From an uncultured Gemmatimonadales bacterium (lineage in GTDB: Bacteria; Gemmatimonadota; Gemmatimonadetes; Gemmatimonadales; Gemmatimonadaceae): a stretch of 64,000 nt of DNA. The notes under the pieces are model-generated. The model worked only from the letters and a program-made list of their open reading frames with translations. It did not search any database and was not told the DNA's origin. Positions within the stretch are counted from its first letter, which is position 1, and every line of letters begins with the position of its first letter. The DNA is taken from the NCBI GenBank assembly GCA_963851265.1, contig CAWKNZ010000006.1, forward strand, positions 128,001-192,000. The letters run 5' to 3'. Below, piece by piece: positions 2,474-58,674 of the stretch. The translations under genes were made by a program, and so were the position numbers.

Positions 2474-5400
2474 GTGACCGCTCTCCCGCCTTCCCGTGCC
2501 CCCCGGCGCGCCCTGTGGCGCGTCGCACCCGCCGCCGTGCCCGCCGCGGTCGCCGCCCTCCTCACCGTGCTCCCCCCCGCGCGATCGACGGCGCAGGCCG
2601 CGGCCGCGCCCGGGGCGCCGACCGCCGGCTCCGACACCAGCGCCTTCGGCGCGCTCACGTGGCGCGAGATCGGCCCCTACCGCGGCGGCCGCTCGGTGAC
2701 CGTGGCGGGGAGCGCCGCCCGGCCGCTCGAGTACTGGATGGGCACGACCGGTGGCGGCGTGTTCAAGACCGCCGACGGCGGAATGACGTGGGCGCCCACG
2801 AGCGACAAGGCGTTCGGCGGCACGGTCGGCTACATCGGCGTGAGCGCGAGCAACCCCGACGTGGTCTACGTCGGCACCGGCGAGTACGCCATCCGCGGCA
2901 ACGTCTCGCACGGCGAGGGGGTGTACAAGACCACCGACGGCGGCAAGACGTGGAGCTTCGTCGGGCTGAAGGCGACGCGCCAGATCAGCCGCGTGCGCGT
3001 GCACCCCACCAACCCGAACGTGGTGTGGGTGGCCGCCCAGGGGGCGTTCTGGGGGCCGAATAAGGAGCGCGGGGTCTACAAGACCACCGACGGCGGGGCG
3101 TCGTGGCGGCAGGTGCTGTTCCGCAACGATTCGACGGGCGCCTGTGACCTCGTCGTGGACCCGAGCAACCCGAACGTGCTCTACGCCGCGTTCTGGCAGT
3201 CGTACCGCAACGCGTACGCGCTGTCGTCGGGCGGGGCGGGCGGTGCGCTCTACAAGAGCACCGACGGCGGCGAGCACTGGGCCGAGCTCACGCACAACGC
3301 CGGGCTCCCCGGCGGCGTGTTAGGCAACATCGGGCTCGCCGTCTCGCCGGCCAACCCGCGGCGGCTCTGGGCGAGCATCGAGGCCGACTCGGGCGGCATC
3401 TACCGCAGCGACGACGCGGGCGCGACCTGGCGGCGCGTGAACGAGGACCGCAAGCTGCGGCAGCGCGCGTGGTACTACTCGCGCATCTTCGCCGACCCCA
3501 AGGACACCAACACCGTCTACGCGCTCAACGTCGGCTTCTACCGCTCCGTCGACGGCGGCCGGACCTTCAAGCAGCCGATCGCGGTGCCGCACGGCGACAA
3601 CCACGACCTGTGGATCGCGCCCAACGACCCGCAGCGGATGATCGAGGGCAACGACGGCGGCGCCACGGTGTCGATGAACGCCGGGAAGACGTGGACCGAG
3701 GAGAACTTCGCCACGGCGCAGTTCTACCACGTGACGGCGACCAACGAGTTCCCGTACCGGGTCTGCGGCGCGCAGCAGGACAACAGCACGCTCTGCGGGC
3801 CGAGCCGGTGGCCGGGCGGCATCGGGCGCGAGCTGTGGGTGGACGCGGGCGGGGGCGAGAGCGGCTACATCGCCGTCGACCCGCTGCACCCCGAGATCGC
3901 CTACGCGGGGAGCTACGGCGGGCTGCTCACGCGCAAGAACATGCGCACCGAGCAGGAGACGCAGGTGAACCCGTGGCCCGACAACCCGATGGGGCACTCG
4001 TCGGGCGACCTCGCGTACCGCTTCCAGTGGACGTACCCGATCGTGTTCTCGCCGCACGACCCGACGGTGCTCTACGCCGGCGGTAACCACGTCTTCCGCA
4101 CGGCCAACGGCGGGCAGAGTTGGGAGGTGATCTCGCCCGACCTCACGCGCCACGACCCGCGCACGATGGGCGCCTCGGGCGGGCCGATCACGAAGGACCA
4201 GACGGGCGTCGAGACGTACGCGACGATCTTCTCCATCGCCGAGTCGCCGCGCACGCGCGGCGTGATCTGGACGGGGAGCGACGACGGGCTGGTCTACCTC
4301 ACGCGCGACGGCGGCCGCGCGTGGCGGAACGTGACCCCGCCGGGGATGGGCGAGCTGCCGCGCATCTCGCTCGTCGAGGCGTCGCCGCACGACCCGGCGG
4401 TGGCCTACGTCGCCGCGAACCGGTACCAGTTCGGCGACCTGCGCCCGATGTTCTACAAGACGGCCGACTACGGCCGCACCTGGACGCCGATCGTCAACGG
4501 CCTCCCCGCCGAGGAGTTCGCGCGCGCGATCCGCGAGGACCCCGTGCGGCGCGGGCTGCTCTACGCGGCGACGGAGCGCGGCGTGTGGGTGTCGTTCGAC
4601 GACGGCGGCCGCTGGCAGAACCTGCGCCGCAACCTGCCGCCCGTGCCGGTGCACGACCTGCTCGTGAAGGAGGGCGACCTCGTCGCGGCGACGCACGGGC
4701 GCTCGTTCTACGTGATGGACGACCTCTCCGCGCTGCGGCAGATGACGCCGCAGACCGCGGCGTCCCCCGCGCACCTCTACGCGCCGCGCGACGCCTACCG
4801 CGTGAGCTGGGGCGGCGGGTTCGGCGAGGGGCGCCGCCAGGCCGGCAAGAACCCGCCGAGCGGCGCGTCCGTGTACTACTCGCTCGCCCGCCCCAACCAG
4901 GACGTGACGCTCGAGTTCCTCGACGCGCGCGGCCGGGTCATCCGCCAGTTCACGTCGCGGCTCGATTCGTTAGGCGTGGCCGACTCGGTGCGCGCCGACA
5001 GCGTGCGCCGCGCGCGCGCCGACTCGGTCGCGCGCGCCGGCGGGCTCCCGCGCACCCCCAACCCGCAGCTCGGCACCGCGGCCCTCCGCGCGGAGAGCGG
5101 CGTGGGAAGCCCGGGCGGCGAGCCCGAGGTCGACTTCGAGGAGCTCGCGCGTCGCGGGCCGCGCGCGCCGCGGGTGCCCAACAAGGCCGGGCTCAACACC
5201 TTCGCCTGGGACCTGCGCGAGCCGGACGCCGTGCGCTTCGACAACATGATCCTCTGGGCGGGATCGACCAGCGGCCCGATGGTGCCCCCGGGCACGTACG
5301 CGGTGCGGATGACCGTCGCGGGGCAGCCCGCGCAGACGCAGCGCCTCGTCGTGCGCGCCGACCCGCGCTCGAAGGCGACGCCCGCCGACGTGGAGGCCAC

Positions 5401-5923
5401 GGTCGCGCTGCAGCGCCACGTGCTCGACCGCCTGAGCGAGGCGAACCGCGCCGTGCGCACCGTGCGCAACGTGCGCGCCCAACTCGCCGCGCGCGCGGCG
5501 CAGGTGCCCGCGGGCGAGCGCGCCGCGTTCGACGCGCAGGCGCGCCCGCTGCTCGCCGCGCTCGCGGCCGCCGAGGAGGAGATCTACCAGGTGCGGAACC
5601 AGAGCTCGCAGGACCCGCTCAACTTTCCGATCCGCATCAACAACAAGCTCGCCGCGCTCGCCGGCGTCGTCGCCACCGCCGACCCGCGGCCGACGCGCCA
5701 GTCGTACGTCGTGTTCGACTCGCTCTCCAAGCAGCTGCAGACCCAGCTCGACGCCCTGCACCGCGCGACAGGTTCGCAGCTGACGGCGGTAAACGCGGCG
5801 CTCCAGCGCCTCGGCCTCAAGCCCGTCGTGCCCAGCGACGCGGAGATCCGCGCCGGCGGCACGCCGCAGATCACGGCGGAGGAGGACGAGGCGGCCGGCG
5901 AGGGCGAGCGCCGCCGGTGGTAG
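2474..5923 (+). CDS. Secreted VPS10/sortilin-like BNR (Asp-box) repeat beta-propeller protein
   Basis: ORF 2438..5923; signal peptide, WREIGPYRGGRS, many (S/T)xDGGxTW Asp-boxes, HGDNHDLWI, GAQQDN, helical C-terminus. Confidence 0.85.
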   Translation: MTALPPSRAPRRALWRVAPAAVPAAVAALLTVLPPARSTAQAAAAPGAPTAGSDTSAFGALTWREIGPYRGGRSVTVAGSAARPLEYWMGTTGGGVFKTADGGMTWAPTSDKAFGGTVGYIGVSASNPDVVYVGTGEYAIRGNVSHGEGVYKTTDGGKTWSFVGLKATRQISRVRVHPTNPNVVWVAAQGAFWGPNKERGVYKTTDGGASWRQVLFRNDSTGACDLVVDPSNPNVLYAAFWQSYRNAYALSSGGAGGALYKSTDGGEHWAELTHNAGLPGGVLGNIGLAVSPANPRRLWASIEADSGGIYRSDDAGATWRRVNEDRKLRQRAWYYSRIFADPKDTNTVYALNVGFYRSVDGGRTFKQPIAVPHGDNHDLWIAPNDPQRMIEGNDGGATVSMNAGKTWTEENFATAQFYHVTATNEFPYRVCGAQQDNSTLCGPSRWPGGIGRELWVDAGGGESGYIAVDPLHPEIAYAGSYGGLLTRKNMRTEQETQVNPWPDNPMGHSSGDLAYRFQWTYPIVFSPHDPTVLYAGGNHVFRTANGGQSWEVISPDLTRHDPRTMGASGGPITKDQTGVETYATIFSIAESPRTRGVIWTGSDDGLVYLTRDGGRAWRNVTPPGMGELPRISLVEASPHDPAVAYVAANRYQFGDLRPMFYKTADYGRTWTPIVNGLPAEEFARAIREDPVRRGLLYAATERGVWVSFDDGGRWQNLRRNLPPVPVHDLLVKEGDLVAATHGRSFYVMDDLSALRQMTPQTAASPAHLYAPRDAYRVSWGGGFGEGRRQAGKNPPSGASVYYSLARPNQDVTLEFLDARGRVIRQFTSRLDSLGVADSVRADSVRRARADSVARAGGLPRTPNPQLGTAALRAESGVGSPGGEPEVDFEELARRGPRAPRVPNKAGLNTFAWDLREPDAVRFDNMILWAGSTSGPMVPPGTYAVRMTVAGQPAQTQRLVVRADPRSKATPADVEATVALQRHVLDRLSEANRAVRTVRNVRAQLAARAAQVPAGERAAFDAQARPLLAALAAAEEEIYQVRNQSSQDPLNFPIRINNKLAALAGVVATADPRPTRQSYVVFDSLSKQLQTQLDALHRATGSQLTAVNAALQRLGLKPVVPSDAEIRAGGTPQITAEEDEAAGEGERRRW

Positions 5924-6357: not shown

Positions 6358-6491
6358 CGGCGTCGCCGGTCGCGACACGGCGGCCGGCACTCTTGACAGA
6401 ATGTGGCGCCGGCCGCCTTTTGGCGGCGGGGCGCGCGGTAGGTGCCGCGCCCTGTCCTCCCAGCCGTCTCCCCCCCGTCGTCCGCCGCGCC

Positions 6492-9299
6492 GTGCCCCGC
6501 CATCCCCTCCACGCGCGCCACGTGCGCCGCGCCGCCGCCCTCGCCGCGCTCTGCGCGGTCCCGCTCACCGCTCCCGCGCGCGCGCGGGCCCAGGCCGGGC
6601 GCGCCGTCCCCGCCTCCGCGCCCCCAGCGGCCGGCGCCCCGACCCGCGTGACCTCGGTCGAGGGCATCACGGAGTACCGCCTCGCCAACGGGCTGCGCGT
6701 GCTCCTCTTCCCCGACGCGTCCAAGCCCACCGCCACCGTCAACATCACCTACTTCGTCGGATCCGCGAAGGAGGGCTACGGCGAGACGGGGATGGCGCAC
6801 CTGCTCGAGCACATGGTGTTCAAGGGCTCGACGCACCACACGAACATCCCGCAGGAGCTGACGGCCCACGGCGCGCGGCCCAACGGTACCACCTGGCTCG
6901 AGCGGACCAACTACTTCGAGACGGTGCCCGCCGGCGACACGACGCTCGCCTGGGCGCTCGACCTCGAGGCCGACCGGATGGTGAACTCGTTCATCGCCGA
7001 CAAGGACCTGCGGAGCGAGTTCTCGGTGGTGCGCAACGAGTTCGAGATGGGCGAGAACAGCCCCTTCAACGTGACGATGGAGCGCGCGATGTCGGCCGCG
7101 TTCCTCTGGCACGGGTACGGGCGGTCGACGATCGGCAACCGGTCCGATATCGAGAACGTGCCGATTCCGCGGCTGCAGGCGTTCTACCGCAAGTACTACC
7201 AGCCCGACAACGCGATGCTCGTCGTCGCGGGCAAGTTCGATCCCGACCGCACGCTCGCCGTCGTGCAGGAGAAGTTCGGCCGGATCCCGCGCCCCGCGCG
7301 CACGCTCGACCCCTCGTACACCGTCGAGCCGGTGCAGGACGGCGAGCGCGGCGTCACGGTCCGCCGCGTCGGCGACGTGCAGCTCGCCTTCGCGCTCTAC
7401 CACATTCCCTCCGGCGCGCACGCGGACTTCCCCGCGGTCGACGTGCTCACCGAGGTGCTCGGCAGCGAGCCGTCGGGGCGCCTGTACCAGGCGCTCGTCG
7501 TGCCGAAGCGCGCGGCGTCCGCCGGCGCGTTCAGCTTCGAGACGCACGATCCGGGCGTGCTCATCACCTTCGCCCAGGTGCGGAAGGAGGACTCGCTCGC
7601 GGTGACGCAGCGGGTCCTGATGGCGACCCTCGACTCGGCTTCGCGCGCGGCGCCGACGGCGGCTGAGGTCGACCGCGCCAAGACGGCGCTGCTCACGCAG
7701 TGGGACCTCACGTTCAACGATTCGGAGCGCGCCGCGCTCGTGCTCTCCGAATCGGCGGCCGCGGGTGACTGGCGCCTGTTCTTCCTGCAGCGCGACCGCA
7801 TCAAGCAGGTGACGCCCGCCGACGTGCAGCGCGTCGCGGCCGCGTACCTCAAGCCGTCCAACCGGACGACCGCGCTGTTCGTCCCGACGGCCGCGCCCGA
7901 CCGCGCCGAGATGCCGCCGACGCCTAACGTCGACGCGCTGGTGGCGGGCTACAAGGGGAACGCCGCGCTCGCCGCCGGCGAGGTGTTCGACCCGTCGCCG
8001 ACCACGGTCGACGCGCGCACCGCGCGCACGCGCCTCGCGAGCGGCCTGCAGCTCGCCCTGCTGCCCAAGAAGACGCGGGGCGGCACCGTCACCGCCGCGT
8101 TCACGCTGCGCACGGGCGACGAGGCCTCGTTGCAGGGGCGCGCGACCGCGGCGGCGATGACGGCGCAGATGATCCTCCGCGGCACGAAGGCGCTCACGCG
8201 CCAGCAGGTCAAGGACTCGCTCGACAAGCTCAAGGCGAACGTGTCGGTGTACGGCGGCCCGACGCAGGTGAGCGGGCAGATCGAGACGACGCGCGCGAAC
8301 CTGCCGGCCGCGCTCCGGCTCGTCGGCCAGTCGCTCCGCGAGCCGGCGCTCGACGCGAAGGAGTTCGAGCTGCTCCGCTCCGACCAGCTCGCGCAGCTCG
8401 ACGACCAGCGCAGCGAGCCGACCGCACTCGGGTCGATCGCCTACCAGCGACTGCTCAACCCGCACGCGAAGGGACACCCGCTCTACATCCAGACCATCGA
8501 CGAGCAGGGGGCGGAGCTGCGCGCGCTCACGGCGGACGACGTGCGCCGCTTCCACCGCGACTTCTACGGCGCCAGCGCCGGCGAGCTGGCCGTGGTCGGC
8601 GACTTCGACCGCGCCGCGATCGCCGCCCTCGCCGACTCGCTGTTCGGCGGCTGGAAGAGCGCGACCGCATACCACCGCGTGCCCGTGCCCTACACGGCCC
8701 TCGCCGCCGGCACGCAGTCGATCCTCACCCCGGACAAGGCGAACGCGTTCTTCCTGGGCGGCACCAACGTCCGCCTCCGCGACGACGACCCGGACTACCC
8801 GGCCCTGCTCCTCGCGAACTACATGTTGGGCGGGGGATTCCTCAACTCGCGCCTCGCGACGCGCATCCGCCAGAAGGAAGGAATCAGCTACGGCGTGGGC
8901 TCGCAGTTCCAGGCGAGCGCGCTCGATTCGGTGGGCAGCTTCACGACGTACGCCATCTACGCCCCGCAGAACGTCGACCGGCTGGAGCGGGCCTTCCGCG
9001 AGGAGCTCGCCCGTGCGGGCAAGGACGGCTTCACGGCCGACGAGGTCGCGCAGGCCAAGGCCGGGTGGCTGCAGAACCGGCAGACGAACCGCGCCGAGGA
9101 CGCGGGGCTCGCCCGCGCGTTGGGCACCCAGCTCTACCTCGGCCGCACGACGGCGTGGGACGCCGGCGTCGAGGCGCGCGTGGCGGCGCTCACGCCCGAC
9201 CAGGTGCGCGCTGCATTCGCCCGCGCGGTGGACCCGTCGCACGTGGTGATCGTGAAGGCCGGCGACTGGAGCAAGAAGGCGCAGGGCGCGGTGCCCTGA
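6492..9299 (+). CDS. Secreted M16 family zinc peptidase (pitrilysin/PqqL-like)
   Basis: ORF 6231..9299; signal peptide, EYRLANGLRVLL, inverted zincin motif HLLEH, NGTTWLERTNY, C-terminal SRLATRIRQKEGISYG. Confidence 0.92.
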   Translation: MPRHPLHARHVRRAAALAALCAVPLTAPARARAQAGRAVPASAPPAAGAPTRVTSVEGITEYRLANGLRVLLFPDASKPTATVNITYFVGSAKEGYGETGMAHLLEHMVFKGSTHHTNIPQELTAHGARPNGTTWLERTNYFETVPAGDTTLAWALDLEADRMVNSFIADKDLRSEFSVVRNEFEMGENSPFNVTMERAMSAAFLWHGYGRSTIGNRSDIENVPIPRLQAFYRKYYQPDNAMLVVAGKFDPDRTLAVVQEKFGRIPRPARTLDPSYTVEPVQDGERGVTVRRVGDVQLAFALYHIPSGAHADFPAVDVLTEVLGSEPSGRLYQALVVPKRAASAGAFSFETHDPGVLITFAQVRKEDSLAVTQRVLMATLDSASRAAPTAAEVDRAKTALLTQWDLTFNDSERAALVLSESAAAGDWRLFFLQRDRIKQVTPADVQRVAAAYLKPSNRTTALFVPTAAPDRAEMPPTPNVDALVAGYKGNAALAAGEVFDPSPTTVDARTARTRLASGLQLALLPKKTRGGTVTAAFTLRTGDEASLQGRATAAAMTAQMILRGTKALTRQQVKDSLDKLKANVSVYGGPTQVSGQIETTRANLPAALRLVGQSLREPALDAKEFELLRSDQLAQLDDQRSEPTALGSIAYQRLLNPHAKGHPLYIQTIDEQGAELRALTADDVRRFHRDFYGASAGELAVVGDFDRAAIAALADSLFGGWKSATAYHRVPVPYTALAAGTQSILTPDKANAFFLGGTNVRLRDDDPDYPALLLANYMLGGGFLNSRLATRIRQKEGISYGVGSQFQASALDSVGSFTTYAIYAPQNVDRLERAFREELARAGKDGFTADEVAQAKAGWLQNRQTNRAEDAGLARALGTQLYLGRTTAWDAGVEARVAALTPDQVRAAFARAVDPSHVVIVKAGDWSKKAQGAVP

Positions 9300-9369
9300 G
9301 TCCGACGCCGCGCGAGGCGTGCCCGTTAGGCAGCTGCGCGGTCGTCGGCGCGCGCGTGCGCCAGACGGA

Positions 9370-10060: not shown

Positions 10061-12376
<2,316 letters not shown>

Positions 12377-12377: not shown

Positions 12378-14090
12378 TCAGGCCACGACGGCGGCGTCGC
12401 GGAGCAGCGCCTCGACGAGCACCGCGCGCGCCGCGTGGTCGCCGTCGCCGATCGCCGGCGGGTCGATCAGCTCGGCGTAGCAGCGCGCCGCCGCCGCGGG
12501 CGCGGGATCACCCGCCGCGGCACCGCGCGCCGCATCCTCGGCGAGCAGCACGAGCGCGAGGCTCTGCGCCAGCCGGTGCAGCAGGCGGCGCGCGTACACC
12601 GGACCGGCGTCGGGCGACGCGGTGGTCGCGGCGTAGGCGCGCCGGTCCCCGTCGAGGCGGCCCGCGAGCGCCGCGCGCAGCCCGCCGGGTTCGTCAGGCA
12701 GCACGGCGAGCGCCCCGCCCGCGCGGCGCTCGTACGCGGCGAACCCGCCGTAGCGCGGGTGGAGCAGGCGCATGAGTTCGAGCGCCTGGATGTTGGCGGG
12801 CCCTTCCCACACGGTGAGCACCTGCGCGTCGCGCAGGAGACGCTCGACCGGGTAATCGCGCGTGTAGCCGTTCCCGCCGAGCAGTTCGAGCGCGGCGCGG
12901 CTCGCGGCCACCGCGTCGTCGGCGGTCAGGTACTTCGCGAGGGCGGTGGTCAGGCGCAGCCACGCCCGGCGCGCGGGGTCGCGAAGCGCGTCGTCGACCG
13001 CGCCCGCGGCCTCGAAGGCGAGGAGGGTGCCCGCGCGCCACCGCACCGCCAGCTCGGCGAGCGTCTCCTGCACCATCGGGTAGTCGGCGATCGCGCGGCC
13101 GAACGCGCGCCGCCGCGTCGCCCACGCGAGCGCTTCCGCGAGCGCCCGGCGCTGCACGCCGGCCGCGCCGACGGCGTTGTGCACGCGGCTGTAAGTGAGC
13201 GCCTCGAGCATCAGGCGCAACCCGTCCGGCGGCGCCGCGACCTCCACGGCTTCGGCGCCTAACAGCTCGATCTCGCCGGTCGGCAGGCCGCGCGTGCCGA
13301 GCTTCTCCTTGAGGCGGCGGATGAGGTAGTGGTTGACGCGCCCGTCGTCGAGGTGGCTCGGGACCAGGTAGAGGCCGAGCCCGGCGGAGCCCGGCGGGGC
13401 GCCCGCCGGGCGGGCGGTGGCGAGCGCGAGGCCGCCGTTGGCGTTGCTGGCGAACCACTTGAGGCCGTGGAGCGCGTGCGTCGCGGTCCAGCGACCCGCG
13501 ACATCCGGCTGAGCCGCGACCGGACGCGCCTCGGTGGTCGTCGCGCCCACGTCGCTGCCGCCGTGCATCTCGGTCGCCCAGGTGCCGCCGGTCTTGGCGC
13601 GCCCGTCCGTCCGGGTGAGGTCGGGCAGGAACCGTTCGCGCAGCGCGGGCGAGGCGAAGTGGCCGAGCACGTACGCGACCGCGCCGGTGAGGGTGACCGG
13701 GCAGTGCAGGCTGATGTCGGCCTGCGACAGCAGGTACCCCATCGTGAAGCTCAGCAGATGCGGCGCGCCGTCGTGGTACGGACGGCCGACGATGCCGCGC
13801 GCGTAGACCTCGTCGTGCTGGGCGGCGTAGGCGGCGTTGAGCACGATCCGGTTGACCACGCGCCCGTCGCGGTCGTACGTCTCGAGCCGCGGCGGCGCGT
13901 CGCGGTCCGTCGTTGCCGCCTGCGCGTCGACCTCGGTCCGCACCCAGCGGTGGAAGTCGCCGAGCTCCGCGCGGTACCGGTCGAAGCCGGGCACGCGCGC
14001 TTCGAGTCGCGGGGCGAGGTACGCGTCGTACGCGTCGTCGGCGTGACGCGCGGGCGCGGCACGCGGCGGGGCGTTGCGGTCGGTCGTCAC
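12378..14090 (-). CDS. Acyl-CoA dehydrogenase, AidB-like
   Basis: CPVTLT, TWATEMHGGSDVG, GLKWFAS, RRLKEKLGTRGLPTGE, RRAFG, LGGNGY, VWEGPANIQAL. Confidence 0.85.
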   Translation of the reverse strand: MTTDRNAPPRAAPARHADDAYDAYLAPRLEARVPGFDRYRAELGDFHRWVRTEVDAQAATTDRDAPPRLETYDRDGRVVNRIVLNAAYAAQHDEVYARGIVGRPYHDGAPHLLSFTMGYLLSQADISLHCPVTLTGAVAYVLGHFASPALRERFLPDLTRTDGRAKTGGTWATEMHGGSDVGATTTEARPVAAQPDVAGRWTATHALHGLKWFASNANGGLALATARPAGAPPGSAGLGLYLVPSHLDDGRVNHYLIRRLKEKLGTRGLPTGEIELLGAEAVEVAAPPDGLRLMLEALTYSRVHNAVGAAGVQRRALAEALAWATRRRAFGRAIADYPMVQETLAELAVRWRAGTLLAFEAAGAVDDALRDPARRAWLRLTTALAKYLTADDAVAASRAALELLGGNGYTRDYPVERLLRDAQVLTVWEGPANIQALELMRLLHPRYGGFAAYERRAGGALAVLPDEPGGLRAALAGRLDGDRRAYAATTASPDAGPVYARRLLHRLAQSLALVLLAEDAARGAAAGDPAPAAAARCYAELIDPPAIGDGDHAARAVLVEALLRDAAVVA

Positions 14091-25572: not shown

Positions 25573-25734
25573 GCCGCCGGGCACCATGTTAGGCACGACC
25601 CGCACGACCCGTAATCTCCCCGCGCGCGTCCTCGCACGCGCGCACGCACGCCCCGAGTTCCTCCCCACCGCCGTGCCGCTCCGCGCCACGACACGAGTGG
25701 TTGCCGCTCACTTCACCTGTTGGAGACGTACGTC

Positions 25735-29001: not shown

Positions 29002-29015
29002 GCAGCACCCGACCC

Positions 29016-47492: not shown

Positions 47493-47501
47493 TGCCCGGC
47501 G

Positions 47502-49109
47502 TCAGTACCCCGGGTTCTGCTTGAGCGTCGGGTTCGCCGAGAGCTCGTTGGCCGGGAGCGGGTAGATGTCGCGCGTGGCCGGCGTCGCGGCCCCGGCGGG
47601 CACGCCGCCCTTGAACGCCCAGACCTTCGTGGCGCCGGTGAAGCGGCCGTACCGGACGAGGTCCGTCCGGCGGTGTCCTTCCCAGAACAGCTCGCGCGCG
47701 CGCTCGTCGAGCACGAAGTCGAGCGTGAGCTGGCCGGCCGCGATCGGCGACGCACCGGCGCGCGCCCGCAACGCGTTGACGTACGAGAGCGCGGTCGCCT
47801 GGTCGCCGCCGCCGCCGCGCAGGAACAGCTCCGCGTACATCAGGTAGGCATCGCCCAGGCGGAACATCGGGTAGTCGGTGTCGGCGAAGTTCTGGTCCGC
47901 GCCCGCCAGCCCCGTCGACGTGACGTTGCGGTACTTGCGGACGAGATACCCCTGCCCGAAGTCGGTGAGGCTGTTGATCGCCAGCGACTGGCCGTTGGCG
48001 TAGAGCATGGCCCCGCGCTGGTCGGTCGTGGTGCTCGGGTTGCCGGTGCTCGTGAACAGCGTGACGAACTCGGGCTTGGCGCGCAGGCCGTACCACCCGC
48101 CGTTGATCCCGAAGTTCGACGTCGCGCTGTCGTTCAGCGTGCCGCCGATCGGCGCGTGCACGAGGAACGTCGTCCCGCCGTAGCTCTGCGTGTGCACCCC
48201 GTCCTGCGGCACGACGAAGATCAGCTCGGGCGAGGTGTTGTTGTCGGCCATGAACATGCGCCGGTAGTTCGGGTCGAGCTGGTACGCGCCCGAGCCGATG
48301 ACGCGCTGCACGGCGGCCATCGCGCTCGCGTACTGCGGCGCGCCGGTGTAGACGCCGGCATTCATGTACAGCTTGGCGAGCAGCATGTCCGCCGCCGCCG
48401 GGGTGGCGCGCCCGTAGGTGGCGGCGCTCTTGGCGGGTAGCTGGTCGCGGATGGCCGTCAGCTCGCTGACGACGAACGTGTACAGGTCATTGCGCGACGT
48501 CTGCGCGGGCGGGGCGCCGCCAATCGGCGTGGCCTCGGTCACGAGCGGCACGCTCCCGAAGATGTCGAGCGCGTGCCAGTACGAGAGCGCGCGCAGGAAG
48601 CGCGCCTCGGCGCGGTACGTCTGGATCTGCGTCTTGAGGGTCGCGCTCACGTTGCGGCCGGCGAGCTGCGCGTCGGTCGTCTGCCGCAGGAACTCCGCCG
48701 CGAACGTCGCCTGCTGCTGGATGCGCGAGTACATCGTGCTGGAAAAGCCGTTGGACGACGTCCAGCCCTGCGTGTTCAGGTCCTGCAGCCCCGACCCGTC
48801 GGTCCAGGCGATGACCGCCTCGTCGGTGGGCAGCTCCTCCATCTGCCAGAGCAGCCGGAGGTACTGCGAGAACCCGGCGTCGAGTCCCTGGATGTCGCTG
48901 GTGCCCGGGCCGGTGGGTCCGCTCAGGGCGAGCACGCCGTAGAGCTTGGCGAGCGACGCCTGGTAGGCGCTGGGGTCGCTGAAGACGTTGCTGCTGCCGA
49001 TGGCGCTCGGGTTGGTGACGTCGACGTTCGTGCAGCCCGCCAGGCCGCCGGCGCCGGCGAGCACGAGGCCGGCCAGGGCCGCGGCGCGATAGGACGATGT
49101 GTTAGGCAT
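47502..49109 (-). CDS. SusD/RagB lipoprotein (starch-type)
   Basis: Lipobox GLAGC; ELPTDEA, AEARFLRALSYW, LAKLYMNA, FADTDYPMFRL, ERARELFWEGHRRTDL, QNPGY. Confidence 0.93.
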   Translation of the reverse strand: MPNTSSYRAAALAGLVLAGAGGLAGCTNVDVTNPSAIGSSNVFSDPSAYQASLAKLYGVLALSGPTGPGTSDIQGLDAGFSQYLRLLWQMEELPTDEAVIAWTDGSGLQDLNTQGWTSSNGFSSTMYSRIQQQATFAAEFLRQTTDAQLAGRNVSATLKTQIQTYRAEARFLRALSYWHALDIFGSVPLVTEATPIGGAPPAQTSRNDLYTFVVSELTAIRDQLPAKSAATYGRATPAAADMLLAKLYMNAGVYTGAPQYASAMAAVQRVIGSGAYQLDPNYRRMFMADNNTSPELIFVVPQDGVHTQSYGGTTFLVHAPIGGTLNDSATSNFGINGGWYGLRAKPEFVTLFTSTGNPSTTTDQRGAMLYANGQSLAINSLTDFGQGYLVRKYRNVTSTGLAGADQNFADTDYPMFRLGDAYLMYAELFLRGGGGDQATALSYVNALRARAGASPIAAGQLTLDFVLDERARELFWEGHRRTDLVRYGRFTGATKVWAFKGGVPAGAATPATRDIYPLPANELSANPTLKQNPGY

Positions 49110-49123
49110 GGGTCAGGCGAACC

Positions 49124-52183: not shown

Positions 52184-52277
52184 GTCTGCTGTTGTTCGGA
52201 AGGAGCGGTAGGGGACCGGACGGCGCGAACGTACGCCGGCGGTGGGTGCTACGGGCCGAGCGGGGCGCGAAACATCG

Positions 52278-54785
52278 TTAGGCGCTCGGCCGCGCGGGCG
52301 CGCGGCGGCAGGCGATGGTGACCGCGCCCGCGGCGAGGTGCGGCGACGTCGCCTCGACGCGCAGCGCGCCCGGTTCGCGCGCCGCCTGGACGATCGCCGT
52401 CCCGAGCCCGTTGAAGGCGCGGCGCGTGGGGCCTCGGTCGCTCTCGTGGCTGCTCGGGTCGCCGTTGCCGACGCCGAGCAGCCGGCCGGCGCCCGAGGTG
52501 CGAAACTCGATCGCGTCGTTCGCGGTGGGCACCGTGCGCCCCGCGGCGTCGACGACGCGCGCCGTCACCACGGCCACGTCCGCGCCGTCGGCCGCGAGCT
52601 CGCCGCGGTCGGCGTCGAGCACGATGCGCGCGGCCGGCCCGGTCGTCTCGCGGCGCGCGACCAGCGCCTGCGCGCCGCCGCGGAAGCCGCGCGCCTCGAT
52701 CGCGCCCGGCGCGTACGGCACCTTCCACGCGGCGTGGCCGTAGCGCGGCACGTCGCGCGCGCCTAACGAGCGGCCGTTCAGGAACAGCTCGACGCGTTCG
52801 AGGTTGGTGTGGCACCAGACCTCGACGTCCTGCCCCTCCTTCCCGGCCCAGTTCCAGTGCGGGAAGAGGTGCAGGACCGGGCGGTCGGTCCACTGCGCCT
52901 GGTAGTAGTAGAAGAGGTCCTTCGGATTGCCGCACGTGTCGAGCACGCCGAAGTGCGAACTGATGCACGGCCACGTGTACGGCGTGGGCTCGCCGCGGTA
53001 GTCGAAGCCGGTCCAGATGAACCCGCCCGCGAGCCACGGCCGCACCGCGAACCGCGAGTACCAGGCCTCGGCGGTCGAGGCCCACCACGGCGCGTTGACG
53101 TCGTACGCGCTCACGTAGCCGCGCTCCGGGTCGTTGGCGTAGATGCCGCGCGTGGTGACCGTGCTCCCCTGTTCGGTGCCCCAGATCGGCAGGGCGGGGT
53201 GGGACTGGTGGAACGCGTCGGTCTGCGGCGCGCGGTAGTTGAAGCCGACCACGTCGAGCGCGGCGGTGATCCCCGTACCCCACCCCTGGTCCATCGCCGC
53301 GGTGATGGGCCGGGTCGGGTCGAGGCGGCGGACCACGCGTTTCATCGACTCGGCCACGCGCAGGCCGAGCGCGGTGCCCTGCGCGGGCTCCTCGTTGGCG
53401 ATCGACCACGCGATCACGCACGGCCGGTTGCGATCGCGGCGCAGCATCCGTTCGAGCTGGCTCTCGCCCTCCTCGCCCGACGAGAAGAGGCGCGTCTCGT
53501 CGACGACGAGCATCCCGGAGCGGTCGCACGCGTCGAGCAGCTCGGGCGCGGGCGGGTTGTGCGCGGTGCGGTAGGCGTTGACGCCCATCTCCTTGAGCCG
53601 CTCGACGCGGAAGCGGTGCAGCCGGTCGGGAAGCGCCGCGCCGACCCCGGCGTGGTCCTGATGGTTACACGTGCCCTTGATCTCGACGCGACGGCCGTTG
53701 AGGAAGAACCCCTGTGCCGCGTCGAAGCGGATCGTGCGGACGCCGAACGTCGTGTCGTAGCGGTCGACCGTCGTGCCGTCGACCTCGATCGTGGTGACCA
53801 GGGTGTAGAGGTGGGGCACGTCGGGCGACCAGAGCGCGGGCGACGCGACGCGCAGGCGCTGCTCCCGGTCGGCCCGATCCCACGCGGGTACTGGCACCGC
53901 GTCGAGGGCCGAGCTGGCGACGGTGCGCCCGGCCGCGTCGAGCACGGTCGAGACGACGCGGCACGTGGCGGGCGCGTCGGCCTCGTTCGCCACCTCGGTC
54001 ACGACGCGCACGACCGCGTCGCCGCCCGCGAGTTCGCTCGTGACGTAGGTGCCCCACTGCGGCACGTGTAGCGGCGCGGTCTTCACGAGCCACACGTGGC
54101 GGTAGATGCCCGCGCCCTCGTAGAACCACCCTTCGTGCTCGCTCGCGTCGACGCGCACGACGAGGACGTTGCTACCGCCGACGTTCGCGACGTCGGTGAC
54201 GTCGTAGCGGAAGGGTGCGTAGCCGCTGAGGTTGCGGCCGAGCAGGTGCCCGTTGAGCACGACCGTGGCGTCGCGGAACACGCCGTCGAATTCGAGCGAG
54301 AGTCGGCGTCCGGCGTCGGCCGCCGGGAGCGCGAACACCTTGCGGTACCACCCGATGCTCGTGTCGGGGTACTCGCGGTAGAGCGGCTTGAACCCCCAGT
54401 TGACGAGGCGCGGGTCGTCGACGAACGGAAGATCGACGGCCCAGTCGTGGGGGAGGTCCACGGCACGCCAGGCGGCATCGTCGAACTGGGCGCTCGACGG
54501 GGCGAACAGCGTGCCCGCCTTCGCGAACCCCGGGTCGGTGGCTGCGCCGAAGCCCATGGCGGGGTCGGCCCCACGGCCGAGCGAAAAGCGCCAGCCGGCG
54601 TCGAGGCACAGGCGCTCGCGCGGCGCGCCTGGCGGTGCCAGCGACGCAACGTCGGCGGGCGCGACGTCGGCCAACGCCCCGTCGGTGGGCGCAGCCAGCG
54701 CCTGCAGCATCGCGGGCCGGAGCGCGGTCGCGCCGGCGGCCGCGATCCCGCTCGTCAACACTTCCCGCCGCGTCCAGTTGCGCAT
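52278..54785 (-). CDS. GH2 beta-galactosidase, Tat-exported
   Basis: Twin-arginine leader TRREVL; LPHDW, LEFDGV, WFYEGAGIYRHV, NHQDHAGVG, RTAHNP, WSIANEE, GTE, WTGFDYRGEP. Confidence 0.92.
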   Translation of the reverse strand: MRNWTRREVLTSGIAAAGATALRPAMLQALAAPTDGALADVAPADVASLAPPGAPRERLCLDAGWRFSLGRGADPAMGFGAATDPGFAKAGTLFAPSSAQFDDAAWRAVDLPHDWAVDLPFVDDPRLVNWGFKPLYREYPDTSIGWYRKVFALPAADAGRRLSLEFDGVFRDATVVLNGHLLGRNLSGYAPFRYDVTDVANVGGSNVLVVRVDASEHEGWFYEGAGIYRHVWLVKTAPLHVPQWGTYVTSELAGGDAVVRVVTEVANEADAPATCRVVSTVLDAAGRTVASSALDAVPVPAWDRADREQRLRVASPALWSPDVPHLYTLVTTIEVDGTTVDRYDTTFGVRTIRFDAAQGFFLNGRRVEIKGTCNHQDHAGVGAALPDRLHRFRVERLKEMGVNAYRTAHNPPAPELLDACDRSGMLVVDETRLFSSGEEGESQLERMLRRDRNRPCVIAWSIANEEPAQGTALGLRVAESMKRVVRRLDPTRPITAAMDQGWGTGITAALDVVGFNYRAPQTDAFHQSHPALPIWGTEQGSTVTTRGIYANDPERGYVSAYDVNAPWWASTAEAWYSRFAVRPWLAGGFIWTGFDYRGEPTPYTWPCISSHFGVLDTCGNPKDLFYYYQAQWTDRPVLHLFPHWNWAGKEGQDVEVWCHTNLERVELFLNGRSLGARDVPRYGHAAWKVPYAPGAIEARGFRGGAQALVARRETTGPAARIVLDADRGELAADGADVAVVTARVVDAAGRTVPTANDAIEFRTSGAGRLLGVGNGDPSSHESDRGPTRRAFNGLGTAIVQAAREPGALRVEATSPHLAAGAVTIACRRAPARPSA

Positions 54786-55021
54786 CAGATGCTGTGAGTG
54801 CACCAAAGAATCGCCACCGTTCGCGATGCGCCGGACGACGGTGGCAGGCCCGAATGCACGTGCGGCGCGAACCGGCTGAACGCCGCCGAACGCTACCGAA
54901 CGGTTTCGGAACCAGGTAATTGTGGTACCAATCGTGCCGCGCCGCGACTGACGTGTCAAGTCGGAATCCGGCGAATCCGCCCGTCGGCGCGCTTAGAATC
55001 CACTCAATGCTCAAACCTGAC

Positions 55022-57682
55022 ATGCGCGCTCTACAGGTAGGGCTCGCCGCGATCCTGGGCTGTAGTGCGCTCGCGGGCGCGGGGGCGCAACCGGCGAACG
55101 TGCGCGGCGCCGCCGCGCGTGCGGACGCTCCGGGGGCGGCAACTCGCGCCGCGTACGTCGACGCCGCCGGCGTGATCCGCTGGCGCGACACGCGCGACGA
55201 GGTCGCCCTCTTCGGCGCGAACTACACGCTGCCGTCGGCCTCCGACTACCGCGCCGCGGGCTACCTCGGACTGGACCGTAAGCGCCAGATCGACGCCGAC
55301 CTCGGGCAGTTCGCGCGCATGGGGTGGGACGCGATCCGCCTGTCGTTCTGGGGCGACTGGGAAAACTCGGACTCCGCCGGCAACCTCGTCGCCAACGATC
55401 ACCTCGACCTGCAGGACTACCTGATCGCGAAGGCGCACGAGCGCGGCATCTACATGCTCCTGAGCCCGATCGTGACGTACGAGGCCACGTGGCCGGACGC
55501 GCTCGCCGACACGCGGCGGCAGCCGGGGTTCAGCAACCACTTCGCGAAGTGCGAGTTAGGCACGAGCCCCGCCGCGATCGCCGCGCAGGCCAACTACCTG
55601 CGGCAGGTGCTGAACCACGTCAACCCGTACACCGGCGTGGCGCTCAAGGACGAGCCGGCGATCCCGTTCGTCGAGATGATCAACGAGCCCTGCCACCACG
55701 CGGACGACCCCGCGCGCTCGGTGCGCTACATCGACGCGCTCGTCGCGGCGGTGCGCGGCACGGGTTCGAAGCAGATCCTCTTCCACAACGTCAGCCAGGA
55801 CTTCGCGATCGCCGAGCCGATCCGGCGGTCGGCCGTGCAGGGCGCGACGTTCGGCTGGTACCCCACGGGGCTCAACTCGGGGCACGAGTTGCAGGGCCAG
55901 TACCTGCGCACCGTCGACGACTACGGGCCGATGCGCACGCCCGCGCTGGCCGGCCGGCCGCGCATCGTCTACGAGTTCGACTCGCCCGACCTGCGCACCG
56001 GCTACATGTATCCCGCGATGGCGCGGACCTTCCGCTCGGTGGGCGCGCAGTTCGCGGCGATGTTCGCCTACGACATGCTGGGGACGGCGTCGCGCAACCT
56101 CGGCTGGCAGACGCACTACCTCAACCTCGTCTACACGCCGCGCAAGGCGATGAGCGCGGTGGTCGCGGCCGAAGTCATGCGGCGGCTGCCGCGCGGCCAG
56201 CGTTACGGCGCGTACCCGGCCAACACGCGCTTCGGCGATTTCCGCGTCAGCGCCGACGAGAACCTCGGCGAGCTCGTCGCGCCCGACGCGTTCATCTACG
56301 CGGGGTCGACGCGCAGCGTCCCGCCGCGGCCGGCCGCGCTGCGGCGCGTGGCGGGTTACGGTTCGTCGCCGGTCGTCACTTATGAGGGCGAGGGGGTCTA
56401 CTTCCTCGACAAGGTGCGCGACGGTCTGTGGCGGCTCGAGGTGTACCCCGACGCGGTGCCCGTGCGCGACCCGTTCGAGCTGCCGAGTCGCGACAAGGTG
56501 GTCACGCGGGCACTGGACGCGGCACGGCCGATGACGGTCGCGCTCCCCGACCTCGGGCCGGCCTTCACGGTCCAGTCGGTTCCCGACGGGGCGGCGCCGG
56601 GGTCGTCGGCGACCGCCGCGGCGGGCCGGTTCGACGTGAGGCCCGGCGTCTACGTACTGAGCGCCCGCGGGCCCGTCACCCGTGCCGCGCTGCCGGCGAC
56701 GCTCGGGCGCCTGCGGTTCGACGAGTACCACGCCCCTCCGCGCGACACCGTCCCGCTCCGCGTGACGATGCTCACCGCGGGCGACCACGTCGCGGGCCGC
56801 CCGGCGACGGTGGTCGCCGGCGTCGTGGACACCGCCGCGCCCGGCCGCGTCGTGCTCTGGATGCGCCGGGCCGCGTCCGGCGGGTTCCGCCCATTCCCGA
56901 TGGCGCCGTCGCGCCCGTACGAGTACGCCGCGCGCCTGCCGCCCGACGCGCTACGCGAGGGCGCGTACGAGTACGTCGTCAGCGTCACGCGCGGCGACTC
57001 GGTCACCACGTTCCCCGAGGGGCTGCACCGTCAGCCCGGGGACTACGACTTCGACGGCCAGCAGTTCTGGACGACCACCGTCGTCGCGCCTAACACCCCG
57101 CTGCGGTTGTTCGAGCCCGCGGGCGACGCCGGGCGCCTGGCGTTCACGCGCGTCGGCGACGGCGGGCGCGAGGGGCTCTTCCGCGTCGTGCCGTCGTCGG
57201 CCACCGGCGCACCCGCGTTCCACCTCGAGCTGCCGGTCGTGCGCGGGCGCGGCCTCGACGACTACACCGCGTCGCTCGTCGTGCAGGACCGGATCACGCC
57301 GCGCGCGGACGACCTCGCGCGGGCCGACCGCCTCACGCTGCGCGCGCGCGGGCTCGTACCGGCGCAGCTGGTGCACGTCACCCTCGTCGAGCACGACGGC
57401 ACGAGTTGGGGCGCCGCCGTTCGGCTCGACACGGCGTGGGGTGAGCACACCGTGCGGATCGCGGACCTCGCGCCGGTGCGCAGCGCGATGCTGCCCGAAG
57501 CCTTCCCGGGCGAGTGGAGCTACTGGGTGGGCCCGGCGGCCGGCCGAGGCGTGACCGGTGACCGCCCCCGACTCGCGAACGTCGAGCGGCTGCAGCTCTC
57601 GTTGCGCGGAGCGGACGCGCTCTCGCCCGTTTCAGGCGCGGCGGGCGTCGAAGTTGAATCGGTGACACTCACCTTCCCGTGA
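55022..57682 (+). CDS. Secreted clan GH-A glycoside hydrolase (GH5-like, possibly GH147) with long C-terminal extension
   Basis: Signal peptide; FGANY, LNHVNPYTG, EMINEP (acid/base), IVYEFD (candidate nucleophile), MFAYD, HYLNLVYTP. Family number is from memory and unverified. Confidence 0.7.
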   Translation: MRALQVGLAAILGCSALAGAGAQPANVRGAAARADAPGAATRAAYVDAAGVIRWRDTRDEVALFGANYTLPSASDYRAAGYLGLDRKRQIDADLGQFARMGWDAIRLSFWGDWENSDSAGNLVANDHLDLQDYLIAKAHERGIYMLLSPIVTYEATWPDALADTRRQPGFSNHFAKCELGTSPAAIAAQANYLRQVLNHVNPYTGVALKDEPAIPFVEMINEPCHHADDPARSVRYIDALVAAVRGTGSKQILFHNVSQDFAIAEPIRRSAVQGATFGWYPTGLNSGHELQGQYLRTVDDYGPMRTPALAGRPRIVYEFDSPDLRTGYMYPAMARTFRSVGAQFAAMFAYDMLGTASRNLGWQTHYLNLVYTPRKAMSAVVAAEVMRRLPRGQRYGAYPANTRFGDFRVSADENLGELVAPDAFIYAGSTRSVPPRPAALRRVAGYGSSPVVTYEGEGVYFLDKVRDGLWRLEVYPDAVPVRDPFELPSRDKVVTRALDAARPMTVALPDLGPAFTVQSVPDGAAPGSSATAAAGRFDVRPGVYVLSARGPVTRAALPATLGRLRFDEYHAPPRDTVPLRVTMLTAGDHVAGRPATVVAGVVDTAAPGRVVLWMRRAASGGFRPFPMAPSRPYEYAARLPPDALREGAYEYVVSVTRGDSVTTFPEGLHRQPGDYDFDGQQFWTTTVVAPNTPLRLFEPAGDAGRLAFTRVGDGGREGLFRVVPSSATGAPAFHLELPVVRGRGLDDYTASLVVQDRITPRADDLARADRLTLRARGLVPAQLVHVTLVEHDGTSWGAAVRLDTAWGEHTVRIADLAPVRSAMLPEAFPGEWSYWVGPAAGRGVTGDRPRLANVERLQLSLRGADALSPVSGAAGVEVESVTLTFP

Positions 57683-58674
57683 CCTCCATCCGACCCATGC
57701 CCGCGTCCGACCGCTACGACCAGATTCCCTACCGCCGCTGCGGCCGCAGCGGCCTCCTGCTGCCGGCCATCTCGCTCGGCCTGTGGCACAACTTCGGAAC
57801 CGTCGACGTCTACGAAACGGGGCGGGCGATCATCCTCCGCGCGTTCGACCTCGGCGTCACGCACTTCGACCTCGCCAACAACTACGGGCCGGTCCCCGGC
57901 TCGGCGGAGGAGACGTTCGGGCGCGTACTGTCGCGCGACCTCGCGGGCTACCGCGACGAGCTGATCATCTCGTCGAAGGCCGGCTACCGCATGTGGCCGG
58001 GCCCGTACGGCGAATGGGGGTCGCGCAAGTACCTGCTCGCGAGTCTCGACCAGAGTCTCGCGCGCATGGGGCTCGACTACGTCGACATCTTCTACTCGCA
58101 CCGCCCCGACCCCGACACGCCGGTCGAGGAGACGATCCTCGCGCTCGACCAGGCCGTGCGGCAGGGGAAGGCGCTCTACGCGGGGCTCTCCAACTACAGC
58201 GCCGAGCAGACGCGCGCCGCGGTCGCGGTCGCGCGCGAGGTGCGACTCCCGCTCGTCATCCACCAGCCGAAGTACAGCATGTTCGAGCGCACGCCCGAGC
58301 AGGGGCTACTCGACGTGCTGACCGAGGAGGGGATCGGGGCGATCGCGTTCTCGCCGCTCGCGCAGGGGCTGCTGACGGACCGCTATCTCCGCGACATCCC
58401 GGCCGACTCGCGTGCGGCCAAGGATCACGGGTTCCTGCAGGCCGCCGCGATCACGGACGAGCGGCGGGCGCAGATCCGGGCGCTCGGCGAGATCGCAGCG
58501 GGGCGGGGGCAGACGCTCGCGCAACTGGCGCTCGCCTGGGTGCTCCGGAAGCCGGCCGTGACGTCGGCGCTGATCGGGGCGAGCCGGGTGGAGCAGCTGG
58601 AGCAGAATCTTGCGGCGTTGCGGAATCTGACGTTAGGCGACGACGAGCAGGCGGCGATCGAGCGGCTGCTCTGA
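57679..58674 (+). CDS. mgrA: Aldo/keto reductase, MgrA/YghZ (L-glyceraldehyde-3-phosphate reductase) type
   Basis: GTGA overlap (alternative ATG 57697); SLGLWHNFG, HFDLANNYGP, SSKAGY.MWPGPYGEWGSRKY, YVDIFYSHRPD, FSPLAQG. Confidence 0.88.
   Translation: MTSIRPMPASDRYDQIPYRRCGRSGLLLPAISLGLWHNFGTVDVYETGRAIILRAFDLGVTHFDLANNYGPVPGSAEETFGRVLSRDLAGYRDELIISSKAGYRMWPGPYGEWGSRKYLLASLDQSLARMGLDYVDIFYSHRPDPDTPVEETILALDQAVRQGKALYAGLSNYSAEQTRAAVAVAREVRLPLVIHQPKYSMFERTPEQGLLDVLTEEGIGAIAFSPLAQGLLTDRYLRDIPADSRAAKDHGFLQAAAITDERRAQIRALGEIAAGRGQTLAQLALAWVLRKPAVTSALIGASRVEQLEQNLAALRNLTLGDDEQAAIERLL

Follow-up and report, generated by a model that had tools for sequence, protein, structure and literature searches.

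A dispersed GTTAGGC word in Gemmatimonadota genomes: a candidate uptake-sequence-like self-tag with the core of integron attC sites

Why does a bacterial genome of 73% GC repeatedly write a heptamer with the very rare codon TTA into its genes? This question is raised by a window of 64,000 nucleotides (the whole stretch of DNA analysed, G000:C6:128001-192000) from an uncultured Gemmatimonadales soil bacterium of the Gemmatimonadaceae, whose assembly, here called G000, comprises 4.60 Mb in 12 contigs. The window holds exactly 22 exact matches to the word, 13 as GTTAGGC on the forward strand and 9 as GCCTAAC on the reverse strand. We tentatively propose that the word is an uptake-sequence-like self-tag which is spread by biased uptake or recombination. 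Among the three functions suggested by an earlier sequence-only reading of the window (methyltransferase target, uptake or recombination signal, nucleoid-protein site), the uptake or recombination signal fits best. We infer such a bias as the force and the core of integron attC sites, with which the word is identical, as the seed.

Genome-wide, G000 carries 1762 copies of GTTAGGC (885 and 877 by strand), i.e. one per 2.6 kb. The full word is CGTTAGGC(G): of the genomic copies, 79% have a C and 14% a T directly before the heptamer (position -1), and 54% have a G directly after it (position +7); conservation around the dispersed copies is limited to these two flanking positions. Most one-base variants at the outer and central positions are found only 8-75 times each, for example ATTAGGC 14, CTTAGGC 10 and TTTAGGC 8 times, and GTTAGGA, GTTAGGG and GTTAGGT 36, 23 and 27 times. 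In a neighbour-contrast statistic for k=6-9 the GTTAGGC word was the sole outlier. Under a maximal-order Markov null it remained outside the top 25, a null which is uninformative here because the component 6-mers (1794 and 1848 copies) occur almost only within the word. When synonymous codons were shuffled within each gene, the called coding sequences of G000 gave 62.95 +/- 5.6 copies (maximum 74 in 20 shuffles) compared to 1002 observed, and the genes of the window gave 0.85 +/- 0.86 (maximum 3 in 200 shuffles) compared to 16. Dinucleotide-preserving shuffles of the window averaged 2.76 copies with at most 7, and none of the 100 reached 22. Moreover, the copies are more evenly spaced than by chance, with 133 gaps below 400 bp vs 250 expected.

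The use of the word within genes was determined in 2808 crude open reading frames (ORFs), called by their GC content at third codon positions (GC3) and covering 69% of the G000 genome. There, 734 of 999 TTA codons sit in G-TTA-GGC. In sense orientation the word is used by 734 of 5859 G-preceded Leu-Gly pairs (12.5%) and in antisense orientation by 187 of 1023 G-preceded Pro-Asn pairs (18%), while Val-Arg pairs followed by C use it in 29 of 2775 cases; 87 of 323 TAA and 48 of 832 TAG stops also lie inside it. Since Leu-Gly and Pro-Asn sites fill similarly, the excess of sense copies reflects only the abundance of Leu-Gly. Local strand bias follows gene orientation, and no replication-strand effect beyond this was significant (odds ratio 1.2-1.8, p 0.06-0.6), with replichores inferred from gene orientation as the assembly is in 12 contigs. 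Because sense and antisense sites are similarly filled and strand bias tracks gene orientation only, the word acts on DNA and is non-polarised.

Most of what had been read from the sequence of the window alone is thereby borne out. All 22 copies were recovered at the positions and on the strands given, and the zero-order expectation of 5-6 copies is arithmetically right for 73% GC. The suspected scarcity of TTA outside the word holds for the genome, and the excess persists against the codon-shuffle expectation, with 1002 copies vs 63. The claims of DNA-level action and of missing polarity were confirmed as described above, and the proposed lineage-specific highly iterated motif agrees with an enrichment that is patchy and confined to one order.

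A possible origin of the word is indicated by word-poor genomes, word-rich meaning a count above twice that of the reversed-word control. Small contigs of such genomes with the word every 500-600 bp on one strand are integron cassette arrays, and in the arrays of G027, G025 and G029 the attC sites run from GCCTAAC to GTTAGGC, i.e. the word is the R''/R' core. The consensus of the integron R box is GTTRRRY / RYYYAAC. G000 has its own array, at C10:186-215 kb plus C6:1-2.3 kb, with 28 paired attC sites found by nhmmer, and a small cluster on C8. In the R' boxes of the G000 attC sites position -1 is C in 15/16 and position +7 is G in 14/16, which gives the same extended word as in the dispersed copies. 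Thus the attC/attI core matches the word letter for letter, including the preferred C and G flanks. This identity, which is absent from the sequence-only reading, is too exact for chance; a single outlier 7-mer would be expected to equal one given word by chance about 1 in 8192 times.

The dispersed copies nevertheless differ from attC sites, as the cassette-bounding palindrome R''-L''...L'-R' is missing and the copies stand alone, with no L box, palindromic partner, cassette or adjacent integrase. In G000, attC half-site profiles (nhmmer) matched only C10:186-215 kb, C6:1-2.3 kb and C8:127-129 kb and none of the dispersed words. Dispersed solo attC sites or cassettes were ruled out, as none was found outside the arrays. 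Enrichment is also independent of the integrase. An integron integrase above the curated cut-off is present in 25/41 genomes, namely in 8/13 word-rich genomes vs 17/28 others. It is broken or was not found in the word-rich genomes G001 (stop codon), G012 (frameshifted pieces), G002, G008, G018 and G401, and it is intact in many word-poor genomes. In genus g48 it occurs in two of three word-rich members and in the word-poor G293. The integron integrase is therefore neither necessary nor sufficient for enrichment.

The G000 array, with about 28 paired attC sites and repeated insertion sequence (IS) copies, reaches the end of contig C10 (C10:183001-215025) and resumes at C6:1-2300; therefore, the two contigs probably abut. 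The attC cluster at C8:126.9-128.9 kb is without integrase. The G000 integrase itself lies in two pieces, residues 2-265 at C6:5244-6044(-) and residues 260-313 at C6:3005-3166(-). Between them sits an insert of roughly 2 kb, which codes for a large serine recombinase with Resolvase, Recombinase and zinc ribbon domains; the window lies about 122 kb downstream of this locus.

Among 41 relatives we found 13 word-rich genomes, with up to 6360 copies in G012, and most of the others were below the control count. In a survey of 401 genomes of the phylum, word-rich genomes amounted to 13/95 in the family, 3/166 in a second family, 0/5 in a third and 0/135 in nine others; three members of the third family were rich in the survey of 41 relatives. 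These tallies include the unpublished genomes G011 (41-relative set) and G085, G203 and G124 (401 set), all word-poor, and no conclusion rests on them. The three rich genomes of the second family belong to a single genus with a gradient from 0.4x to 4x control. Similarly, G240, G297 and G401 of genus g48 carry 3500-4100 copies of the 8-mer and G293 only 66. Enrichment is thus patchy, within one order, and turns over inside a genus, and a specificity that was acquired would be expected to show such a patchy and graded distribution. In G012 (62% GC), of which 260 kb were sampled, the same word recurred at a density of 1.45 copies per kb, its core slightly shifted to CGTTAGG(C/T). Three samples of 50 kb from the two megaplasmids of the cultured Gemmatirosa kalamazoonensis KBS708 gave 39, 25 and 37 copies, and six one-base variants of the word were absent from all three. 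The 20,952-bp contig C4 of G304 shows the word spacing of the first 20 kb of contig C1, offset by 6440 bp; it is as word-rich as the chromosome but duplicates the C1 start and is hence not an independent test of newly arrived DNA. Among the top matches of a literature search there was no paper on the GTTAGGC word in Gemmatimonadota.

In the window, 13 copies read xxG-TTA-GGC (Leu-Gly), five read G-CCT-AAC (Pro-Asn; sites 7922, 17210, 29633, 49101 and 57088), one supplies a stop codon and three are outside confident genes (9325, 19420 and 25588). Of the tally of the sequence-only reading (14, 5, 1 and 2), the five Pro-Asn copies and the stop stood; the Leu-Gly and outside-gene counts each differ by one ambiguous site, probably 25588. 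The host genes are ordinary and encode peptidases, a histidine kinase, glycoside hydrolases (GH), SusC/SusD pairs and an aldo/keto reductase. G001, G003 and G004 belong to the same genus as G000 and form with it the four genus members named below. The copies are as follows.

3319..3325, forward strand: sense GTG-TTA-GGC (Leu-Gly) in the BNR/sortilin-like gene 2375-5923(+); also in G003, G004 and G001; CTG-CTG-GGC in word-poor G006.
4969..4975, forward strand: sense TCG-TTA-GGC (Leu-Gly) in the same gene 2375-5923(+); also in G004; GATCGGC in G001.
7922..7928, reverse strand: antisense to the M16 peptidase gene 6084-9299(+), ACG-CCT-AAC (Pro-Asn); a synonymous rewrite private to G000, because G003 has CCC-AAC and G004 CCG-AAC.
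9325..9331, forward strand: 26 bp beyond the stop of the M16 gene; the overlapping ORFs are only of GC3 0.56-0.72, hence no confident gene.
12358..12364, forward strand: sense GCG-TTA-GGC (Leu-Gly) near the C-terminus of the PAS histidine kinase gene 9992-12376(+); also in G003.
13257..13263, reverse strand: sense CTG-TTA-GGC (Leu-Gly) in the acyl-CoA dehydrogenase gene 12378-14123(-); TCG-GGC (Ser-Gly) in G004, an amino-acid difference.
15810..15816, forward strand: sense CTG-TTA-GGC (Leu-Gly) in the M1-peptidase-like gene 14047-16239(+); CTC-GGC in G004 and CTG-GGC in G001 and G006, i.e. a substitution and no insertion.
16358..16364, reverse strand: sense ACG-TTA-GGC (Leu-Gly) in the DUF885 gene 16196-19420(-); common to all four genus members.
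17210..17216, forward strand: antisense to the same DUF885 gene 16196-19420(-), TTG-CCT-AAC (Pro-Asn); the relatives have Pro-Asp, and therefore an amino-acid change accompanied the word.
19420..19426, forward strand: upstream edge of the DUF885 ORF, probably intergenic; also in G003.
25588..25594, forward strand: between the SASA esterase gene (end 25572) and a TonB-dependent receptor gene; ATG-TTA-GGC in a short ORF, probably the fourteenth Leu-Gly copy of the earlier tally.
29633..29639, reverse strand: antisense to the SusD-like gene 28491-30719(+), ACG-CCT-AAC (Pro-Asn).
39984..39990, forward strand: sense TCG-TTA-GGC (Leu-Gly) in the alpha-galactosidase gene 38923-40305(+); also in G003.
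43871..43877, reverse strand: sense GCG-TTA-GGC (Leu-Gly) in the alpha-amylase-family gene 43796-46774(-); in G001 and G304, not in G003 or G004, which conflicts with a single tree.
45110..45116, reverse strand: sense TCG-TTA-GGC (Leu-Gly) in the same gene 43796-46774(-); common to all four genus members.
46213..46219, reverse strand: overlap of two long (-) ORFs, CTG-TTA-GGC (Leu-Gly) in 45721-48096 or GTT-AGG (Val-Arg) in 43796-46774; the Leu-Gly frame is favoured because the amylase Pfam domains begin only at residue 404 of ORF 43796-46774.
49101..49107, forward strand: overlaps the start of the SusD-like gene 47502-49109(-), ATG-CCT-AAC (Met-Pro-Asn).
52277..52283, forward strand: gives the stop codon GCC-TAA-C of the GH2 gene 52278-54992(-); GTCAGGC in G003.
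52761..52767, reverse strand: sense TCG-TTA-GGC (Leu-Gly) in the GH2 gene 52278-54992(-); also in G003.
55555..55561, forward strand: sense GAG-TTA-GGC (Leu-Gly) in gene 54920-57682(+), which has no Pfam family.
57088..57094, reverse strand: antisense to the same gene 54920-57682(+), GCG-CCT-AAC (Pro-Asn).
58632..58638, forward strand: sense ACG-TTA-GGC (Leu-Gly) in the aldo/keto reductase gene 57658-58674(+); GCTCGCC in G004.

Regarding the gene content of the window, two SusC/SusD-type outer-membrane pairs form polysaccharide-utilisation-like loci at 25615-30719 and 47502-52564. They are flanked by GH130, GH26, GH3, GH27-like, GH13 and GH2 genes and by esterases, and their SusD parts fall on the two lowest-GC stretches of the window (0.68-0.69).

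How fast the copies change place became apparent when 40 kb of the window were aligned with the orthologous DNA of the three same-genus genomes (83-85% identity), of two other genera and of one word-poor genus. The copies align gap-free to CTC/CTG-GGC or CCG/CCC-AAC and at times to codons for other amino acids (Ser, Phe, Asp). Six-base (TTAGGC) insertion footprints were ruled out, as the orthologues are gap-free with codon substitutions. The counts per genome, with the baseline at which any 7-mer is shared, are listed here.

G003: 17 G000 sites aligned, 12 shared, 11 sites only in G003, 7-mer baseline 0.38.
G004: 11 G000 sites aligned, 5 shared, 8 sites only in G004, 7-mer baseline 0.35.
G001: 8 G000 sites aligned, 5 shared, 8 sites only in G001, 7-mer baseline 0.34.
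G304: 6 G000 sites aligned, 1 shared, 5 sites only in G304, 7-mer baseline 0.205.
G006 (word-poor): 4 G000 sites aligned, 0 shared, 0 sites only in G006, 7-mer baseline 0.14.

Within the genus, 22/36 aligned G000 sites are therefore shared, compared to a baseline of 0.34-0.38, and 27 sites are private to the relatives. Only three sites are common to all four genus members, and five presence patterns are at odds with a single tree. The copies are somewhat protected, yet each lineage keeps acquiring new ones at places of its own.

A reader of the word was sought among the gene families of the 41 genomes. G000 possesses an import machinery consisting of ComEC, DprA, ComEA-like proteins, PilM and seven pilin-like ORFs. 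Vsr was found in 4/41 genomes, all of them word-poor. A C5-methyltransferase (PF00145) was likewise found in 4/41, three word-poor genomes and a weak partial match in the word-rich G018, and it was not found in G000-G004, G008 and G012. RecC occurred in 1/41 genomes (AddAB was not covered) and a VirB4-type ATPase in 2/41, one word-rich and one word-poor. Exactly one FtsK gamma domain per genome was matched in 38 genomes and none was found in three, and word-rich genomes had no extra copy. None of these families tracks the word, nor do ComEC, PilM, ComEA-like proteins and the integron integrase. Besides, an additional small HHH_3 (ComEA-type) protein of about 130 residues is encoded at G000:C3:101258-101431. 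It is found in G000, G001, G003 and G004 and not in rich genomes of other genera, i.e. it tracks the genus and not the word.

In the explanation that we favour, a sequence-specific protein would read CGTTAGGC(G) on double-stranded DNA, a recognition of eight base pairs. A continuing directional force, rather than a position-specific function of single copies, would keep the word on both strands of every replicon. Cells would preferentially import or recombine fragments bearing the word, which would amount to a molecular drive of the uptake-sequence type, and alleles that gain the word by mutation would spread and settle where the cost is lowest, namely in synonymous Leu-Gly and Pro-Asn pairs, stops and spacers. 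Of the mechanisms known, only biased uptake or exchange with subsequent recombination writes words in this way. The word was probably not invented anew, being the R-box core of attC in cassette arrays that are common in the order; with such arrays common, word-rich DNA would have pre-existed when the specificity arose. An unlikely elaboration of this scheme is that the integron core seeded self-recognition, in that a receptor for DNA exchange acquired the attC R box as its target in several Gemmatimonadales lineages, first favouring the import of cassette arrays and then writing the word through all resident replicons.

Several observations weigh against an uptake-type tag. ComEC, PilM and ComEA-like proteins (40/41 genomes each) are equally present in word-poor genomes and do not explain which genomes are word-rich, and three of the seven pilin-like ORFs of G000, compared in three rich and two poor genomes as minor-pilin candidates, revealed no rich/poor pattern. 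Neisseriaceae have dialects of their uptake word; dialects in related lineages were not found here in the two genomes sampled, as the word-poor G006 (400 kb sample) had no outlier word of any kind and G012 had the same word. Inside the cassettes of the G000 array the word occurs 10 times vs 10.7 expected, mostly in IS copies and divergent attC sites, which is no clear depletion. The identity with the integron core could also point to a different, integron-linked mechanism. Close inverted pairs of the word (<=30 bp apart) number six among 1750 spacings, and only these resemble the terminator hairpins of the Neisseria DNA uptake sequence (DUS). The longest word-free stretch, of 45 kb, consists of housekeeping genes with no obvious island. 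Finally, the literature searched contained no uptake or transformation experiment for any Gemmatimonadota.

As to the inverted pairs, perfect or near-perfect hairpins with the word in both arms lie in G000 at C2:116117, C2:11210, C7:601245, C7:567606 and C8:177680. Two word-bearing hairpins have the extension GCTACGTTAGGC in common; they may be terminators, such pairs being only six genome-wide. The word-free stretch is located at G000:C1:182876-227962, where about 17 copies are expected, and contains gidA/mnmG, mnmE, a phosphoglucomutase gene and an ABC transporter. In the relatives, G003 had 0 copies in 10.7 kb aligned and G012 had 10 copies in 8 kb. A conserved word-free zone near gidA/mnmE was accordingly ruled out, the gap being lineage-specific, and dnaA is 170 kb off. 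The identity of this stretch to G001 and G004 is 78-79% vs 81-89% in the window; given this lower identity, it might be an imported segment.

Even coverage of the genome would also be useful to a chromosome-organising or other DNA-transaction protein, for instance a nucleoid-associated protein or a loader, whose sites selection would then preserve, and we consider a site of this kind possible although rather unlikely. Even spacing, copies on all replicons including the megaplasmids of Gemmatirosa kalamazoonensis (25-39 per 50 kb), strict recognition of 8 bp and the sharing of 22/36 aligned sites against a baseline of about 0.36 are consistent with it. However, most close relatives are without enrichment and a word-poor genome exists inside a word-rich genus, which is hard to square with a core role; only three sites outlast the fast turnover in all four genus members, the 45 kb housekeeping stretch is empty in G000 while the same genes are dense in G012, and no candidate protein was identified. 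Clearly less probable is an integron-linked function, in which lone R boxes are read by the integrase or by a Xer/IntI-like paralogue as secondary sites, titrating decoys or cassette-making boundaries. This would account for the identity of the word with the R''/R' core in G027, G025, G029 and G000 and for the agreement of the flanks (C 79%, G 54% in dispersed copies), and the integrase is common in the order (25/41 above cut-off). Yet rich and other genomes carry it alike (8/13 vs 17/28), several rich genomes have it broken or missing from our searches, in G000 it is split, and many word-poor genomes, among them G293, have an intact one. Moreover, the dispersed words have no L box or wider conserved flank, nothing indicates that cassettes land at them, and integrase strand exchange leaves no scar that would write the word.

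The word might instead act on the donor side as a nick or loading site (oriT- or clt-like), which would raise the export of DNA rich in it. A mobile reader would be in keeping with the patchy distribution, and FtsK-like translocases that read 8-mers exist, e.g. TraB of Streptomyces. Since VirB4 is found in only one rich and one poor genome, no additional FtsK gamma domain occurs in word-rich genomes and the Gemmatirosa megaplasmids are classed as non-mobilizable in PLSDB, we regard this as very unlikely. No more credit is due to a polar signal for recombinational repair or segregation, comparable to Chi or the FtsK-orienting polar sequences (KOPS). The word is an over-represented asymmetric 8-mer, here about once per 3 kb, and copies that are probably intergenic show a slight preference for the inferred leading strand (e.g. 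93 vs 70); however, 885 and 877 copies by strand are balanced, no effect beyond gene orientation is significant with the inferred replichores, and RecC, in a search that did not cover AddAB, appeared in a single genome. A similarly low probability applies to a methyltransferase target kept by short-patch repair, as proposed for the highly iterated palindrome HIP1. Enzymes of type IIG, of type III and of BREX systems typically recognise asymmetric sites of 6-8 bp with a central A. The available text of one study describes HIP1 as containing targets of two orphan methyltransferases (PMC4390886). Nevertheless, RGATCY, ATGCAC and CCAGN7TCA are the only methylated motifs given in the single-molecule real-time (SMRT) methylome of Gemmatirosa kalamazoonensis KBS708 (PMC3974934), although 150 kb of sampled megaplasmid sequence contain the word 101 times; this concerns a relative and not G000, and SMRT sees 5-methylcytosine poorly. 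Because a word-rich relative methylates other motifs only, an explanation based on methylation is unlikely, and this suggestion of the sequence-only reading is disfavoured. The C5-methyltransferase is restricted to a weak partial match in one of 13 word-rich genomes and Vsr to none of them, and T:G-to-C:G repair cannot write TTA. Least probable of all is a translation-level device in which rare TTA codons serve regulation, as for bldA in Streptomyces. While 73% of TTA codons are in the word and a tRNA-Leu(UAA) gene is present in G000, enrichment is equal in antisense (Pro-Asn), at stops and outside genes, and all seven or eight bases are fixed, not the codon alone.

Among known systems, the uptake-type tag that we favour comes closest to the DUS of Neisseriaceae, which is read by the minor pilin ComP, and the uptake signal sequence (USS) of Pasteurellaceae, for which the minor pilin ComN is reportedly the predicted receptor according to a 2025 preprint (10.1101/2025.06.16.659825). 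These are likewise short, exact and asymmetric words that occur thousands of times, on both strands, in spacers and within genes where the codons tolerate them, restricted to a lineage and accompanied by import machinery. In contrast to DUS and USS, which are family-wide, the word described here belongs to another phylum, the Gemmatimonadota, and is patchy within family and genus. A dialect is absent in the word-poor relative examined, there are few terminator-type inverted pairs, and the use of a codon that is very rare at 73% GC as well as the coincidence with the integron attC core are peculiar to it. HIP1 (GCGATCGC) of cyanobacteria is also a hyper-abundant octamer in genes that is spaced more evenly than random. 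In the available text of a 2026 study, HIP1 correlates with pilus and competence genes and a role in uptake is proposed (PMC13756078), and recent work reportedly connects it with natural transformation (PMC13756078; 10.1101/2024.09.10.611283). However, HIP1 is a palindrome with methyltransferase targets and nearly phylum-wide, whereas the present word is asymmetric, patchy within one order and absent from the motifs that a word-rich relative methylates (PMC3974934). Chi, KOPS and the SpoIIIE recognition sequence (SRS) are similarly asymmetric over-represented words of ~8 bp, read on DNA by a motor-associated protein. They are strongly replication-oriented, which this word is not, and in the genomes compared here RecC is essentially absent and there is no extra FtsK gamma domain.

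In practical terms, the word skews the codon statistics of these genomes, with most TTA codons and a quarter of the TAA stops being its by-products, and it distinguishes resident DNA from recent arrivals. The on/off contrasts between close relatives, in genus g48 and in the genus with the gradient, are an unusually good handle on the reader gene. Through its identity with the integron core the word joins two hitherto separate fields, namely self-DNA tags and gene-cassette exchange. If the word was seeded from integrons, cassette arrays would be its densest natural source. In the bolder variant, an R box every 1-3 kb would put any chromosomal gene beside a potential integrase site, and these lineages would make new gene cassettes, whose origin is a long-standing open question. 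To our knowledge, proven uptake words come from only two bacterial families, to which the cyanobacteria add one hyper-abundant octamer, HIP1. A third independent case, if true, would lie in an abundant, little-studied soil phylum, and the cultured, word-dense Gemmatirosa kalamazoonensis KBS708 makes experiments possible.

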